Shown: piece by piece, positions 4,900 through 63,946 of the stretch
How the letters are laid out: each line of letters opens with the position of its first letter
Position numbering within the stretch: the first letter of the stretch is position 1
Assembly (NCBI GenBank): GCA_964418945.1
Contig: CAYQNR010000001.1
Coordinates: 13,414 to 77,413, forward strand
Source of the DNA: an uncultured Desulfobacteraceae bacterium
GTDB lineage: Bacteria; Desulfobacterota; DSM-4660; Desulfatiglandales; HGW-15
Direction: 5' to 3'
Length of the DNA stretch: 64,000 nucleotides
Translations under genes and position numbers: made by a program
Notes under the pieces: generated by a model
What the model saw: only the letters and a program-made list of their open reading frames with translations
What the model was told of the DNA's origin: nothing
The model's database searches: none

Positions 4900-5219
4900 G
4901 GTTTATCCGGTCACGGCGGTTCTTTTCAAGACGACATCTATAGTATCCCGTGGACGTGGTCTTATTTTCAAGGGTTTGGCAAACCTTTTCCTGGTGGCAA
5001 AGGCATATTCTGCCAGGGGTTCTGGTGGAGCAAACCCTTCAAACAAGCCCACTGCAGGCCTGGGGTGGAATTCTTTTTGAGATGTCGTTTTTCCAAGAAC
5101 CACCGTGACTTCAGGTCTTAATACTTTTCGAAATGATATCTAAATATTTTGGGCCATTAAGGTACTTATAATAAGCCTTAATCTTTTACTTCTTTGCGTA
5201 CTCATTAACCGGATGAAAC
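4900..5219 (+). mobile_element. MITE-like composite element, copy A (variant cargo module)
   Basis: The right arm and TIR (GCGTACTCATTAACCGGATGAAAC) match the other copies. The left end GGTTTATCCGGT is interrupted by a ~200-bp module with imperfect 29-nt inverted arms at 4910-4938 and 5081-5109. Confidence 0.7.
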
Positions 5220-10434: not shown

Positions 10435-10779
10435 TTTGATCCGGTTAATAAGTACGTAAACAAATAAACGATTAAACCTTATCCGCCTTCGCAGAAGACC
10501 ACGGGTTTACCCGTGGGGCTCCATTATAAGTACCTTAATGGCCCATGGGGCTCTCTTTTAAGCACCGAAAACATTAACAGCATGCGAATTACGTAAGGTG
10601 CCACCCAGGCGGGCGGAATACTTATGAGATATTAGAAAATTCTCGAGTCCGGCCAGATCCGGAAAAGGCTACCCGCCCGCCTCGTCTGGTTTTGTGCGCG
10701 GTCAGTGCCCATAAACGAGTTCGCCGCTTAAAGAGAGCCCCATGGGCCATATAGCGCAAAATATCTTAGATATCATTAT
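10435..10779 (-). mobile_element. MITE-like composite element, copy B (inverted; one TIR missing)
   Basis: One TIR is TTTGATCCGGTTAATAAGTACG. It carries the hairpin segment CCACGGGTTTACCCGTGG and the inner module at 10540-10748 bounded by GGCCCATGGGG/CCCCATGGGCC. Homology on the far arm stops at about 10779 with no TIR. Confidence 0.75.
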
Positions 10780-10960
10780 AATTTTATCACAAAACCAAAA
10801 AAGGTGCAAATATTATTGTGGCTTGTTTAGCCTCCATCCGGTCTGGAGCAACCATGGGATTACATGAGCAATAGATCCCATTCCGTGGAACTGTCAAGTT
10901 CGAAAGGAAAGTACGATTACAGATGGTGCCCTCATGGTGGACTAGGGTGCTATTTATAAA

Positions 10961-19104: not shown

Positions 19105-19435
19105 AGTTAATCCGGTTAATGAGTACGCTAGTTAATGATATCTAAATACTTTGCTCTATATGGCCCATGGGGTTCTCTTTTAAAAGGCGAACTCGCTTAT
19201 GTGCAATGACCCTGCACAAAACAAGACGAGGCGGGCGGGTAGCCTTTTCCAGACTTGGCCGGACTCGAGAATTTTGTGTTATCTCATAAGTATTCCGCCC
19301 GCCTGGGTGGCACCTTACGTAGTTAGCATGCTGTTAATATCTTCGCCGCTTAAAAGAGAACCCCATGGGCCATTAAGGTACCTGTAATAAGGTTTGATCT
19401 TTTTCTTCTTTACGTACTCATTAACCGGATGAACC
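19105..19435 (+). mobile_element. MITE-like composite element, copy C
   Basis: TIRs AGTTAATCCGGTTAATGAGTACG ... CGTACTCATTAACCGGATGAACC. Inner module at 19162-19371. No hairpin segment in the right arm. Confidence 0.8.
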
Positions 19436-21474: not shown

Positions 21475-21558
21475 GTCATTCGAGGAACAAACACGCCGGC
21501 CTAACTGACTTTCTTGCGTCTACCCTGTATCTACACATCCAGGTTGACAGATACTTTT

Positions 21559-22118
21559 GCTTCATCCGGTTAATGAGTGCCCTAGTTAATGATATCTACA
21601 TGTTCTGCGCTATATGGCCCATGGGGTTCTCTTTTAAGCGGCGAACTCGTTTATGTGCAATGACCCTGCACAAAACAAGACGAGGCGGGTGGGTAGCCTT
21701 TTCTAGACTTGGCCCCACTCGAGGATGTTCTATTATCTCACAAGTATTCCGCCCGCCTGGGTGTCACCTTACGTAATTAGCATGCTGTTAATATTTTCGC
21801 CGTGTAAGAGAGAGCTTCATGGGCCATTAAGGTACTTATAATGGAGCCCCACGGGTAAACCCGTGGTCCCATTAAAATACCCGTCTTTCCATCCTCCGTA
21901 GCCCGTCCTCCGCAGTGGCCTGCTACGGAGGATGGACAGGCTACTGCGGAGGACGGGCGCCTCCGGCTACGACGCGGTTATCCGCCTGAACTGGGGGCGA
22001 CATCGCGCCGTAGCAAGCCATCATTTGCGCATTCAACCACGGGCAAGCACGTTGTCTTCTGCGAAGGCGGATAAGGTTTAATCCTTTACTTCTTTACCTA
22101 CTCATTAACCGGATGAAA
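21559..22118 (+). mobile_element. MITE-like composite element, copy D (fullest form, 560 bp)
   Basis: Contains TIRs, the inner module at 21616-21825, hairpin CCACGGGTAAACCCGTGG at 21849-21866, a 170-bp third module at 21867-22036, and a second hairpin CCACGGGCAAGCACGTTG at 22037-22054. Confidence 0.85.
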
Positions 22119-22197
22119 CTTACTTTTTGTGAATTGGCTTCACTTTTATCCTATGATATTATATAATATTTTGAACAAACAAGGAGATGATTAAACA

Positions 22198-29315: not shown

Positions 29316-29334
29316 AATTATCATTATGGGTAGT

Positions 29335-30422
29335 GGGACGCTCTTTAATAATTTAAAAACTTATCTTTCAAGAGAATAATTACCCTCTTTTGCGATTGAT
29401 TCTCCCCGTTCAACGGAAAATCCGACACCAGCTAAACTCATCTCTAATTTTTTGGCCAGGGATGTATGAGACAGGCCCAATTCCCTGGAAGCCCAAAAAC
29501 ATAAAAGACTCCTCGCCTTTACTTTTCTGTCCTGTCGCCCCTTTGAAAAAACTTCATCCGGTTTCATCCCTAGTACTTCCGAAACCCTCTTGGCTATACC
29601 ATCCAGATCATATCCTTTCCGCCTAAGTCTATGCCTTCGCTCATAGTGTTCCTCAGATTGTGAAATGACCGAATCAACAAAATCAGAATCCCCCAGGATT
29701 CTCTCATCACTCATAATATGAATACCACCCTTCAAAATTTCTCGGGCTTCAGTCCAACCACCAAGACTGCGGATTAATCCACCACCGGTCAATTGTTTCT
29801 TTCGGCCTTGGGTAAAACCTTCTTTAACAAAGGATTCATATTCTTCCCTGGCTTTACTCTTGCTTTTACTAAAATAGCCGAGAACGTAATCAGTATCCTG
29901 CCATTTACTTTCCGTTTTACCCATTAAAGTGCTATGCCCGCAATATTTATAGCTCTTCAATTCATCAAGCGTTTGAACAATTCCTGATCGAATAGGATTC
30001 AGATGAATATATCGGACCAATTCTTTAAGATACCCATCTTCCTGACAGATTATAGATTTGTACCTGTTCTGAAATAATTGACCACTACGTTTATGTCGGC
30101 GGTTAAATCTGATAACATAACCAGTAAGCAAACGTCTCATGAGTCTGGATAACGGCACCGTTCCGGTACGAAAAAGAAAATGTGCGTGATTAGACATGAA
30201 CGCCCACGCATAACAGGTTGTCTGCGTTGTATTACATAGGTTCTCAAGTCGTTCGATAAGATCCTCACGATCTTTATCGTTTCGGAATATCTTCCTGCGT
30301 TCTATCCCCCGAATCATGACATGGTGTAGAACACCTGGAGCATCAAGTCGTGCTGTTCTAGGCATATTTCTTTTTTAATATCGCCATCCTACAATGTCAA
30401 TTAAATTATTAAAGAGCGTCCC
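29335..30422 (-). mobile_element. Y1/HUH transposase gene bracketed by perfect 22-bp inverted repeats
   Basis: GGGACGCTCTTTAATAATTTAA at 29335-29356 is the exact reverse complement of TTAAATTATTAAAGAGCGTCCC at 30401-30422. The pair encloses the single ORF 29361-30365. Confidence 0.75.
29361..30365 (-). CDS. IS200/RAYT-like Y1 (HUH) transposase with C-terminal DnaA-C-like HTH domain
   Basis: N-terminus MPRTARLDAPGVLHHVMIRG, HUH motif SNHAHFLF and catalytic-Tyr region VRYIHLNPIRSGIV. The C-terminal SLLCFWASRELGLSHTSLAKKLEMSLAGVGFSVERGE is HTH-like. Confidence 0.8.
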   Translation of the reverse strand: MPRTARLDAPGVLHHVMIRGIERRKIFRNDKDREDLIERLENLCNTTQTTCYAWAFMSNHAHFLFRTGTVPLSRLMRRLLTGYVIRFNRRHKRSGQLFQNRYKSIICQEDGYLKELVRYIHLNPIRSGIVQTLDELKSYKYCGHSTLMGKTESKWQDTDYVLGYFSKSKSKAREEYESFVKEGFTQGRKKQLTGGGLIRSLGGWTEAREILKGGIHIMSDERILGDSDFVDSVISQSEEHYERRHRLRRKGYDLDGIAKRVSEVLGMKPDEVFSKGRQDRKVKARSLLCFWASRELGLSHTSLAKKLEMSLAGVGFSVERGESIAKEGNYSLER

Positions 30423-30437
30423 CTTTTGTCACTTTTG

Positions 30438-32751: not shown

Positions 32752-33114
32752 GGTTCATCCGGTTAATGAGTAGGTAAAGAAGTAAAGGATTAAACCTTAT
32801 CCGCCTTCGCAGAAGACAACGTGCTTGCCCGTGGTTGAATGCGCAAATGATGGCTTGCTACGGCGCGATGTCGCCCCCAGTTCAGGCGGATAACCGCGTC
32901 GTAGCCGGAGGCGCCCGTCCTCCGCAGTAGCCTGTCCATCCTCCGTAGCAGGCCACTGCGGAGGACGGGCTACGGAGGATGGAAAGACGGGTATTTTAAT
33001 GGGACCACGGGTTTACCCGTGAGGCTCCATTATAAGTACCTTAATGGCCCATGGGCCATATAGCGCAAAATACTTAGATATCATTAACTAGCGTACTCAT
33101 TAACCGGATGAAAC
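32752..33114 (-). mobile_element. MITE-like composite element, copy E (inverted; central site empty)
   Basis: By eye, one half is identical to the reverse complement of copy D, including the 170-bp third module at 32835-33004. The central palindrome GGCCCATGGGCC (33046-33057) is uninterrupted. Confidence 0.85.
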
Positions 33115-33458
33115 AACCAGTTTCTTCTATAAAAACAACAAAAACTTTGATATAAATAAAAAAGACAATCACCTCGACCTTAATACTTACATTCTTTTTT
33201 AGTTCGGTGTTCATGCCCCTCGGAGATGCTGCCCCCCACGACAGGCCTCGGCCCAGGAATAACGCCCCTGGAAAGACGGTGTCCGTGAGTGTTCCCTTGC
33301 TCAACGTCCGTTCGGAGCCCGGATTAAATCTCCCGGTTATCTTTCAAAATATCCCGTAATATGGTTGCTTAAAACAACAACTTGCATTATTATGACGGGA
33401 ATTGTAGAAAAGATTACTTTATTAATTCTCTTTAAATGGAAAAGGGTGCTTGCATAAA

Positions 33459-43343: not shown

Positions 43344-43716
43344 GGTTCATCCGCTTAATCAGTACGGTAGCTAATTATATCTAGATACTTTGCGTTACAT
43401 GGGCCATGGGGTTCTCTTTTAAGCGGCGAACTCGTTTATGTGCTATGACCCTGCACAAAACAAGACGAGGCGGGCGGGTAGCCTTTTCCAGACTTGGCCG
43501 GACTCGAGAATTTTGTGTTATCTCATAAGTATTCCGCCCGCCTGGGTGGCACCTTACGTAGTTAGCATGCTGTTAATGTTTTCGTCCCTTAAAAGAGAGC
43601 CCCATGGGCCATTAAGCTACTTATAATGGAGCCCCACGGGCAAGCACGTGGTCTTCTGCGAAGGAGGATAAGGTTTAATCTTTTACTTCTTTACGTACTC
43701 CTTAACCGGATGAAAC
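43344..43716 (+). mobile_element. MITE-like composite element, copy F
   Basis: Degenerate TIRs GGTTCATCCGCTTAATCAGTACG ... CGTACTCCTTAACCGGATGAAAC. Inner module at 43401-43610. The right arm carries hairpin CCACGGGCAAGCACGTGG. Confidence 0.8.
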
Positions 43717-47279: not shown

Positions 47280-47601
47280 GGTTCATCCGGTTAATGAGTA
47301 CGGAAAGGACTTTATATAAATACTTGGTTTGGCCCATGGGGTTCTCTTTGCGACAGGCGAACTTGTTTATGTGCAAGGCGCGGGCAATAAGCCGGACTAG
47401 GCGGGCGGCGGGCTATTGGAATAATATACCAGGACCGGAAGTCCGGCTATCATCTCAGAAGTTACCCGCCCGCCTGGCAGGCACCTTATGCTATTATCTT
47501 GCTTCTAACCTTTTCGCCGCTGCAAAGAGAGCCCCATGGGCCGAATATCACCAATCTTGCTATAGTATTATCATTAAGTGTGCTCATTCGCCGGATGATC
47601 C
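47280..47601 (+). mobile_element. MITE-like composite element, copy G (subfamily 2, filled)
   Basis: The arms are nearly identical to copy H. A variant inner module at 47331-47542 is inserted in GGCCCATGGGCC. The element fills most of the glyS-metV divergent intergenic region. Confidence 0.85.
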
Positions 47602-53060: not shown

Positions 53061-53182
53061 GGTTCATCAGGTTAATGAGTACGGAAAGGATTTTATATAA
53101 ATACTTGGTTCGGCCCATGGGCCGAACATCACCAATCTTGCTATAGTTTTATCATTAAGCGCACTCATTTGCCGGATGATCC
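53061..53182 (+). mobile_element. MITE-like element, copy H (minimal 122-bp form, empty central site)
   Basis: GGTTCATCAGGTTAATGAGTACGG ... GCGCACTCATTTGCCGGATGATCC around the 20-bp palindrome GTTCGGCCCATGGGCCGAAC. It lies between hypF and hypC. Confidence 0.85.
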
Positions 53183-60731: not shown

Positions 60732-60992
60732 CCATCACCCGGGGGCAGGTACCCGTGGGGAAACGACCCTTGGGGGAGTAAAGAGAAAAAATAGGGGCGA
60801 TGTTGTTCGTCGCAATGATGTATTGTTTACGGATCTGCAACTGAGCACTGACTTGTTAGAATCATGGATAATAGAGGGGGCATGCCTGGCGTCCTACCCG
60901 CCCCCGTATTGAGCTCATGGGGATACCGCTGCAAAAAGCCTTCATTTGTGGAGAGATGAACAGTCGAAAATATGGGGGTCGCGTCTGTACTC

Positions 60993-61067
60993 CTGACAAA
61001 TTCCGTATTAATCATCTATCTACAAGTAGTACTAAATTAAGATACGTGAAGAATGGAGACCTGACCC
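60993..61067 (+). promoter_or_regulatory. Conserved promoter/operator-like block, copy 1
   Basis: About 75 nt, with roughly 80% identity to 63872-63946. It reads CTGACA-N18-TATCTA and then the shared block CAAGTAGTACTAAAT...CGTGAAGAATG. Confidence 0.45.
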
Positions 61068-63468: not shown

Positions 63469-63871
63469 GATTTTAACCCCCTATCCAATGTTTTACAATT
63501 GAGAGGTCTCAGGTGCGCTCTCACGCAAAACAGCCTCCTCCAAAATCACGAGCGGGCCTTTATCTGAGCCTAGCCTGTTTTCAACCGCAGAGCCCGCTCA
63601 GGAAAAACTGTGACAATAACTTAAACCTGGCCTAACAAGTTAACGGCCCATAGCTAACATTTGTTGGGTGAGGTAAGGTGAGGAGATGAGAGCTCCCTTT
63701 TTTGGGGCCTAAGTATAGGTGATTTGGTCCTGCGTGTCAATGATAAAGTCGACGCATGATGTGGTAATCCTCCATTTTGCCTGGAAATCAGATTGATGAG
63801 TGGAGGGCATTCAGAGGTGGGGAAGGTACATCTGGGGCCATATCTTTGTGAAAAGGATGACAGTTTCACTC

Positions 63872-63946
63872 TTGACAGATTTCAGATTAATGATTTATCT
63901 ACAAGTAGTACTAAATAAAAATGCGTGAAGAATGAAGATCTGAGCC
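63872..63946 (+). promoter_or_regulatory. Conserved promoter/operator-like block, copy 2
   Basis: TTGACA-N18-TATCTA plus the same downstream block as 60993-61067. It points toward sequence beyond the window end. Confidence 0.45.

Follow-up and report, generated by a model that had tools for sequence, protein, structure and literature searches.

Apparent mosaic ancestry of two inverted ISL3-type MITEs with nested hairpin elements in an uncultured Desulfobacteraceae bacterium

The stretch of DNA that was analysed, called the window in the following, is 64 kb long and contains eight intergenic copies (A–H) of one repeat family, 118–561 bp in length. Two of them, D and E, lie in inverted orientation with 10.6 kb between them, and the comparisons below support the view that D is a true mosaic, also when sequences from sister assemblies are put in its place, with a diverged left half and a right half that is nearly the same as that of E. 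This pattern is probably, if only just, the outcome of an ectopic gene conversion limited by homology, in which an E-type right half was copied over an older D. About half of the signal of identity between the two copies depends on one assembly, and where dispersed repeats in a metagenome contig look perfectly identical, independent assemblies should be consulted before the match is given a biological reading. Everything central to the analysis fits known kinds, namely IS-derived MITEs, nesting, solo deletions, concerted evolution and the collapse of repeats in metagenome assembly, and the window may serve as a compact example of how a bacterial MITE family evolves in concert. The copies are of two types, type 1 (A–F) and type 2 (G and H), which have only the ends and the central palindrome in common:

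5135..5217 (approximate), plus strand: copy A, a truncated type 1 remnant with an incomplete palindrome and with neither left terminal repeat nor nested element
10436..10790, minus strand: copy B, type 1; it has module 1 and, of the nested element, a 42-bp solo remnant in which the left-type hairpin is kept
19107..19433, plus strand: copy C, type 1, module 1 present and nested element absent
21559..22119, plus strand: copy D, ISL3-derived MITE of type 1, 561 bp, with the palindrome module and the full nested hairpin-ended element
32752..33114, minus strand: copy E, ISL3-derived MITE of type 1, 363 bp, with the full nested element and no module 1
43346..43714, plus strand: copy F, type 1; it has module 1 and, of the nested element, a 42-bp solo remnant in which the right-type hairpin is kept; its left arm is an outlier
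47282..47599, plus strand: copy G, type 2 MITE with the same terminal repeats and palindrome, other arms, and a diverged module 1 in the palindrome
53063..53180, plus strand: copy H, minimal type 2 MITE of 118 bp with the palindrome intact

The terminal repeats of the window elements are 19–22 nt, the same as in ISL3-family insertion sequences; the left terminal repeat of copy B is degenerate. The 19-nt end TTCATCCGGTTAATGAGTA is present in more than 92 stretches of GTDB genomes among the matches listed, and the genomes that carry it are, again among the matches listed, mostly Desulfobacterota MAGs, with others labelled Pirellulales, Sedimentisphaerales and Leptolinea. In a Syntrophus MAG (L058) and in Desulfoferrobacter suflitae (L085) two such ends 1.31 kb apart flank the gene of a 400-aa transposase, which matches the Pfam family DDE_Tnp_ISL3 with E = 1e-79 and the NCBIfam model transpos_ISL3 with 304 bits, and these full-length ISL3 copies have 8-bp target duplications, ATAAGTTA and GTAATTGT. 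Duplications of 8 bp are found at the window copies as well, with 7/8 positions matching for D, E, F (TAAATTTT / TAAATCTT) and the outside copy L236, 7–8/8 for H and 6/8 for C; copy G has no matching 8-bp target duplication at its ends. On these sequence features, ISL3 terminal repeats together with AT-rich duplications of 8 bp, the window elements are assigned as MITEs of an ISL3-family insertion sequence. Like other IS-derived MITEs they are short and non-coding and occur in many intergenic copies, with inverted ends identical to those flanking ISL3 transposase genes and with 8-bp AT-rich target site duplications, and they differ in being strongly modular, with three levels of smaller repeats nested inside them. 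No autonomous ISL3 partner was seen within the 64-kb window, and the search for occupied and empty sites gave no presence/absence polymorphism, every sister assembly having each copy in the same place. Among the matches listed, the closest relative in a named genome is a copy in an uncultured Desulfobacteraceae MAG (L050). The copy L236 has the E-type architecture at another locus with its own 8-bp duplication, TTAGATG(A/G), and this copy alone suggests that the E-type composite may be transposed as a unit. Literature searches for nested ISL3 MITEs returned general papers only. The ISL3 terminal repeat is common to MAGs labelled Desulfobacterota, Planctomycetota and Chloroflexi.

Three smaller units are nested in the MITEs, namely a 198-bp hairpin module (module 1), a 230-bp hairpin-ended element and, inside the latter, a 35-nt motif. 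The parts of D and E are placed as follows:

21551..21558, no strand: left target site duplication of D, ATACTTTT, with its partner TTACTTTT at 22120-22127 (7/8 match)
21561..21624, plus strand: left arm of D, from the terminal repeat to the left palindrome half; the diverged half, 6/64 positions differing from E
21626..21823 (one equivalent placement), plus strand: module 1 in D, a 198-bp insert in the palindrome
21818..22117, plus strand: the half that D has in common with E, 299/300 in the window and 293–294/300 in sister assemblies
21843..22072, plus strand: the 230-bp element nested in D, with hairpins close to both of its ends
21889..21961, plus strand: doubled 35-nt motif in D, the outer copy being TCCATCCTCCGTAG..CTACTGCGGAGGACGGGCGCC and the second copy inverted within its loop
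32744-32751 and 33115-33122: target duplications of E, AAGCAGTT and AACCAGTT (7/8 match)
32799..33028, minus strand: nested 230-bp hairpin-ended element in E, including the doubled motif
33046..33057, no strand: intact central palindrome of E, GGCCCATGGGCC, which together with its neighbours makes the 16-bp perfect palindrome ATGGCCCATGGGCCAT

The span of the original prediction, 32752-33114, coincides exactly with element E including its terminal bases, and its statement that E keeps the palindrome intact was borne out by GGCCCATGGGCC at 33046-33057. The insert that it described in D does lie at the palindrome point, but its length is 198 bp and not 210 bp.

Module 1 has terminal inverted repeats of its own of about 20 bp (GTTCTCTTTTAAGCGGCGAAC) and is bordered in the family by CCCATGGG on both sides, the right border in D being TTCATGGG; its DNA fold is a long hairpin of -43.9 kcal/mol (z = -5.75). 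B, C, D, F and L050 carry it within the palindrome, the type 2 copy G has a variant with 75% identity there, and the palindrome is intact and free of the module in E, H and L236. The presence of the same module in the same palindrome of two MITE subfamilies with unrelated arms (B, C, D, F and G) makes it plausible that the palindrome is an insertion hotspot, as had been proposed, but a deletion between the CCATGGG repeats fits the distribution equally well. An insertion with an 8-bp duplication and a precise deletion between these repeats would leave the same 12-bp palindrome, so that module 1 may have been either gained or lost here.

The 230-bp element consists, in this order, of GGAGCC, a left hairpin (CCACGGG-TAAA-CCCGTGG), the interior, a right hairpin (CCACGGGCAAGCACGTTG) and TCTTCTGCGAAGGCGGAT, and its DNA fold has z = -5.2. 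What the original prediction called the hairpin region is part of this independent element. It also stands alone, with no ISL3 MITE around it, at four loci (L199, L208, L227 and L219). The sites are CAAT, GCAT, GAAT, TAAT and ACGT, followed by AA or GA (n=5), so four of the five come after ..AT and one after ..GT, and a 2-bp AT duplication would be compatible with them as well. The loop of the left hairpin is TAAA and that of the right hairpin CAAGC or CATGC, a consistent difference in L199, L208, L227 and L236, and the more distant L219 has one loop sequence in both hairpins. With a hairpin near each end, a duplication of at most 2 bp and no long terminal inverted repeats the element resembles the PATEs of the IS200/IS605 group, and no partner Y1 transposase was identified for it. 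Copies A and C are entirely without the element, and the 42-bp form in B and F is made up of its two ends joined at the hairpin; since B keeps the left hairpin type and F the right one, the two short forms are independent internal deletions. Transposons can excise precisely between short direct repeats that flank long inverted repeats, and the formation of solo LTRs is known. The window is similar in that the 12-bp palindrome corresponds to the two ends of module 1 joined at CCATGGG and the 42-bp forms to the ends of the nested element joined at the hairpin, and it is different in that insertion and deletion of module 1 are both admissible. Both nested units thus occur in full, 'solo' and empty states, and together may be regarded as a compact case of nested modular growth and decay. 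D is the sole copy observed with both module 1 and the full nested element.

In the window sequence, positions 21818-22117 of D and the reverse complement of E 32754-33053 were compared over 300 nt and have one mismatch, 21849, which is C in D and T in E, so that the earlier statement of no difference over more than 250 bp has to be corrected by this one position. The left arms, 21561-21624 in D and 33112-33049 in E, differ at 6/64 positions, which fall in both of the clusters that had been pointed out, 21579 and 21581 in one and 21599, 21600, 21602 and 21605 in the other. The contrast of 6/64 on the left with 1/300 on the right has a Fisher p of 1.5e-4. The description of the two copies as identical in one half and diverged in the other hence agrees with the window itself (6/64 positions differing against 1/300), but the identity is not robust across assemblies.

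The differences between D and E were polarised with B, C, F, L236, L208 and L227 as outgroups. Substitutions found in D only make up 14/257 positions left of the junction and 3–4/300 right of it (p = 0.006–0.007); by segment they are 4/64 in the left arm and 10/193 in module 1, and right of the junction 0/51, 1/138 and 2/81. All six differences in the left arm are on the side of D, and four of them are found in no other copy. E has 0/59 unique substitutions in its left arm and is near the family consensus throughout. In the right half the derived base is in D at 21934, 22004, 22041 and 22048, and in E at 21849, 21913 and 22019. The D/E identity in the left arm, about 90%, is typical of the family (pairs 83–95%), and the right half with 97.7–99.7% is closer than any other pair in any segment. 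The set compared comprises the eight copies of the 64-kb window plus a few relatives from outside it, and a closer donor for either half could exist elsewhere in the genome. The segments of the host MITE right of the palindrome (21818-21842 and 22073-22117) are 70/70 identical between D and E even in sister assemblies, and the other 27 pairs have a mean of 88% over the same segments (P about 1e-4). An independent insertion of a young nested element in D and in E can be dismissed, given these host-MITE segments at 70/70 against the family mean of 88%.

The changes unique to D reach 21816, and the shared block starts at 21818, where homology to E ceases; the next change unique to D is 21934 (or 22004 in a count that is unable to score 21934). 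The switch point is thus no more than a few bases from the right half of the palindrome. The original prediction of a mosaic ancestry with its joint at the palindrome is upheld as far as the mosaic goes (14/257 against 3–4/300), but a mechanism specific to the palindrome is not needed for it. Strings specific to D in the left arm are GAGTGCCCTAG and CTACATGTTCTGCG. Unique bases make up 9/64 positions in the left arm of copy F against 2/193 in its module 1, and the identity of C and F is 95% over module 1 and 83% over the left arm, which suggests that the longer internal modules may have been homogenised more than the short arms. As F is heterogeneous too, variation in substitution rate from segment to segment may have contributed in part to the contrast in D.

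Look-ups with exact proteins led to about 20 further assemblies (JGI 33000312xx–33000320xx and Logan runs) with contigs of the same population, which are 99.9% identical to the window. Copy D is spanned with unique flanks on both sides in five independent assemblies and copy E is spanned by six. In 5/5 assemblies (L001, L002, L004, L006 and L011) the sister D has A at 21934, T at 22004, G at 22019, A at 22041 and G at 22048, where D of the window has G, C, C, G and C respectively, and in 6/6 assemblies (L011–L014, L018 and L019) the sister E has T at 32958, where the window has G. The right halves of D and E differ at 6–7/300 positions in sister assemblies, with a p of about 0.01 for the contrast with the left arm, and all 7 D/E differences are located inside the 230-bp element. 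The five differences between D of the window and the sister D correspond to 1.7% in 300 bp against 0.02–0.08% in unique DNA, and therefore reflect a block event and not point mutation; ordinary strain divergence is excluded as their source by the same figures. A chimeric D joined by mistake is likewise excluded, as each of the five independent assemblies reads through the entire copy into unique DNA at either end.

Only in this assembly does the identity between D and E rise from about 98% to 99.7%. It had been named beforehand that sequencing or assembly error behind the identical segment would speak against the mosaic; that objection applies in part, to the last step from about 98% to 99.7%, and the mosaic stays when the sister sequences are used. 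This last step to near-identity is either a very recent conversion from E to D in the strain of the sample or a collapse of the 98%-identical repeats by the assembler. In other assemblies contigs end inside the repeats, at positions 19408, 21635, 21875, 22088 and 32783, and the Logan contigs of SRR8557270, probably the sample of the window, break inside the repeats. No site other than the surviving mismatch, 21849, lies within 31 nt of a repeat border, and the homogenised sites are all at least 64 nt from a border or a retained difference. The window combines C at 21913 with G at 21934, 21 nt apart, a haplotype which is present in neither the sister D nor the sister E, and the E of L011 has the allele of E at the site equivalent to 22041 and the allele of D at that equivalent to 22048, 7 nt apart. 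Recombinant haplotypes over distances of 7 and 21 nt, seen here at the level of contigs, would have to exist in the reads, which argues that some of the exchange or polymorphism is real, and exchange between D and E appears to be still going on in the population.

According to the mechanism that we favour, D would be an old diverged copy, in which the left arm and module 1 have each acquired about 5–6% substitutions of their own, and ectopic gene conversion, with E or an E-type copy as the donor, would have replaced its right 300 bp or so. The converted tract would take in the core and the right arm as well as the nested hairpin-ended element, and the exchange would be non-reciprocal, dependent on homology and between inverted copies 10.6 kb apart. 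It would end at the module 1 indel at the palindrome on one side and at the end of the element on the other, stopping at the palindrome because the homology of D and E ends there, D having the 198-bp module and E being without it. From parsimony we infer that the transfer went from an E-type copy to D, a direction that would need no unseen donor. The near-identical block is bounded by the limits of homology and the parts flanking it are at family-typical divergence, which is the pattern by which gene conversion is recognised. Concerted evolution by ectopic gene conversion among dispersed repeats has been described for copies of insertion sequences, REPs and rRNA operons. D and E are like these cases in having a block of near-identity that ends with the homology, partners that are nearby and inverted, and patchy recombinant haplotypes in the population, and they differ in that the tract would have to extend to within about 23 nt of the element end and in being known here from contigs. 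The two shared derived bases of the right arm, 22084 and 22097, are at distances of just 36 and 23 nt from the end of the element, so that a classical conversion tract with two sides would have very little homology beyond them, which counts against conversion. A reciprocal crossover or inversion between D and E is out, as it swaps arms without making the right halves alike and the five to six assemblies that cross the region are colinear.

The main rival to conversion as a mechanism starts from common descent, with D and E both being recent transpositions of an E-type master and D having later received its left arm and module 1 from an unseen diverged copy. The transposition of the E-type architecture as a unit, as seen in L236 at its other locus with its own 8-bp duplication, would agree with this, and so would the presence in D, alone among the copies, of module 1 together with the full nested element. 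The identity to the very end of the right arm, including the two derived bases close to it, is also easier to obtain by copying of the whole element. Against a replacement of the left half, no donor is visible, the left arm and module 1 of D being outliers to every window copy and to L050, the same problem of short homology returns at the left end, where the changes unique to D start 21 nt from the element end, and an extra player that is not observed has to be brought in; we regard it as quite unlikely. In another reading D and E would be nothing more than rather close relatives within the family, the assembler would have merged two 98%-identical repeats of 300 bp onto one path, and the contrast of 9% with 2% that remains would be ordinary rate variation among segments. 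The near-identity in this assembly only, with 5/5 sister D and 6/6 sister E differing at the same sites, points this way, the spacing of the sites (21849 within 31 nt of a border, the rest at least 64 nt away) fits a merging of bubbles with a k-mer near 55, contigs of the other assemblies break inside these repeats, and F demonstrates that arms can diverge faster than modules. The mosaic survives with the sister sequences, however (14/257 against 3–4/300, and host segments at 70/70 against 88%), the short-range recombinant haplotypes of the window (21913/21934) and of the E in L011 would have to be in the reads, and at k = 127 the copies have no k-mer in common, so that a pipeline with multiple k should resolve them, as the assemblers of five sister assemblies did. 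An artefact of this kind is unlikely as an explanation for the whole pattern.

The original prediction went further and took the palindrome for a recombination hotspot. In such a mechanism the palindrome GGCCCATGGGCC or the hairpin of module 1 would be extruded in cruciform or hairpin form and lead to breakage or template switching, and exchanges would start or stop there regardless of homology. The junction does coincide with the palindrome, module 1 and the palindrome halves together fold to a long hairpin (z = -5.75), and the indel is at the same site in two MITE subfamilies. But the coincidence is fully accounted for by the break in homology, a single junction cannot separate the mechanism from homology-limited exchange, and in F the discordance between left arm and module comes without a clean breakpoint at the palindrome, which together make a role of this kind very unlikely. 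A recombination hotspot is not required, the junction being where the homology of D and E stops, and more generally a junction found at a palindrome may mean no more than that homology ends there. Homology-limited conversion with an E-type donor is the reading that we retain for D and E.

The 35-nt motif and its 230-bp carrier are the unexplained item worth following, and are more interesting than the D/E pair. The motif is bipartite, TCCAYCCTCCGTAG-(C+3-4 nt)-CTACTGCGGAGGACGGGCGCC, and lies in the centre of the 230-bp element. A scan of metagenomes with its 21-nt right half gave at least 117 matches, and the sister D and E loci are not among the matches listed. It occurs in at least 98 unrelated contexts from soils, peat, sediments and bioreactors, on contigs with 41–66% G+C. 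The left half TCCAYCCTCCGTAG is present at the standard spacing of 4–6 nt in 82/98 distinct contexts with enough flank among the matches listed, and though outside the query it is essentially invariant in those 82, with the loop and the flanks varying. The motif was absent from plasmids and from the viral contigs searched, a literature search with the motif strings gave nothing relevant, and Rfam 15, searched with the window and with 20 motif loci, gave no match that reached the gathering score, the hits below threshold being chance matches of generic hairpins of microRNA type.

REPs are defined as imperfect palindromes of 20–40 nt with GT[AG]G located 0–2 nt 5' of the stem (PMC6006769). The motif resembles the REP/REPIN-RAYT system in being a short imperfect palindrome which contains GTAG, but its GTAG is at the top of the stem, at the loop end, and not at the 5' foot as in canonical REPs, and with this placement it does not qualify as one of them. 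The Y1 gene of the window scored 67 bits against REP_Tyr_transpos, below the cutoff of 80, and is bordered by unrelated 22-bp terminal repeats of its own and not by the motif, and a Y1 homologue was found at only 2/117 motif loci among the matches listed. A tie of the motif or the nested element to the Y1 transposase of the window is consequently unsupported, in view of these terminal repeats and of the two loci in 117 listed.

It is possible, though doubtful, that the 35-nt motif is a previously undescribed self-nesting mobile or catalytic unit, which either is recognised by a conserved enzyme or acts as a structured nucleic acid. If so, the three nested levels of D and E would be the record of several classes of elements having inserted site-specifically into hairpin loops and palindromes, and the motif would offer a handle on how such tiny repeats move. 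A motif of 35 nt that is invariant across habitats is the item here that could lead to something new. It is found in three forms, as a single copy, as a head-to-head pair and with one copy nested in another. The second copy is inverted within the loop of the first in D, E, L163 and L182, and in L205 a direct copy of the motif splits the left half.

The ISL3-derived MITE copies D and E each contain a nested hairpin-ended element with a 35-nt motif at its centre, and copies B and F contain a short solo form of the same element.

21843-22072, nested hairpin-ended element, in D
32799-33028, nested hairpin-ended element, in E
21889-21961, doubled bipartite 35-nt motif, in D
32910-32982, doubled bipartite 35-nt motif, in E
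10497-10538, 42-bp solo form, in B
43627-43668, 42-bp solo form, in F

The element is 230-290 bp long with one hairpin close to either end, starting with GGAGCC and a hairpin and finishing with a hairpin followed by TCTTCTGCGAAGGCGGAT, and it is found standing alone in other metagenomes (L199, L208, L227 and L219). Four of five insertion sites lie after AT and one after GT, in all five cases with AA or GA following. The layout is similar to that of non-autonomous elements of the IS200/IS605 type, and a search for a partner enzyme found none. A wider family with similar ends is represented by L134, L163, L182, L206, L209 and L229.

The motif, which is also present in loci L122-L238, is bipartite, with the structure TCCAYCCTCCGTAG-(C + 3-4 nt)-CTACTGCGGAGGACGGGCGCC, and its sequence is constant in at least 98 unrelated contexts. 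These come from metagenomes of soil, peat, sediment and bioreactors, and the contigs have a G+C content of 41-66%. A second copy is located head-to-head within the motif's own loop in D, E, L163 and L182, and L205 shows nesting in direct orientation. No family in Rfam matches the motif, and it was absent from the plasmids, viral contigs and publications that were searched.

In the solo forms both ends of the element are joined at the hairpin, with a left-type loop (TAAA) in B and a right-type loop (CAAGCA) in F, and the two are independent deletions between the direct hairpins. Besides D, copy F is another mosaic MITE; in its left arm (43346-43409) 9 of 64 positions are absent from every other copy, as are 2 of the 193 positions in its module 1 (43410-43602), the palindrome insert, which is 95% identical to that of copy C. 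In the sister assembly L011 (sample 3300031586), at the sites matching window positions 32823 and 32830, copy E has the allele of D at one and its own 7 nt away; this haplotype is a recombinant and must exist in the reads. One more difference, between the window and sister assembly L001, is located at 10549 in the palindrome region of B, again inside a repeat copy, and differences among the assemblies are concentrated in repeats.

A transposase unit is located between D and E.

29361-30365, minus strand, Y1 (HUH) transposase gene, 334 aa (unit 29333-30425)

Perfect 22-bp inverted repeats, GGGACGCTCTTTAATAATTTAA, enclose the gene, and the C-terminal domain of its product has a weak DnaA-C-like match. 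The unit fits the 'TIRYT' or subclass 2.1 group described in PMC6006769. The same unit, with 81% protein identity, is present in a different context in L054, a Desulfatiglandaceae MAG, and sister assembly L013 departs from the window directly past the 22-bp repeat at about 30400.

Two MITE copies are of type 2.

47282-47599, type 2 MITE copy G
53063-53180, type 2 MITE copy H, the minimal 118-bp form

Their similarity to type 1 is limited to the ISL3 ends and to the GGCCCATGGGCC palindrome. In type 2 this palindrome is lengthened to the 18-bp TTCGGCCCATGGGCCGAA, and in G it holds a version of module 1 with 75% identity. Among the matches listed (loci L021-L112, for example L024, L033, L048, L064 and L093), the 19-22-nt ISL3 end is found in MAGs labelled Pirellulales, Sedimentisphaerales, Leptolinea, Bacillales and many Desulfobacterota, a spread to which contamination during binning may contribute. 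The end is the exact terminus of many of these contigs, and in the Pirellulales MAGs the ends form MITE-sized pairs with a spacing of about 140-185 bp. Unrelated to the MITE family is a 79-nt direct repeat (60989-61067 and 63868-63946), with 84% identity between two intergenic copies 2.9 kb apart.
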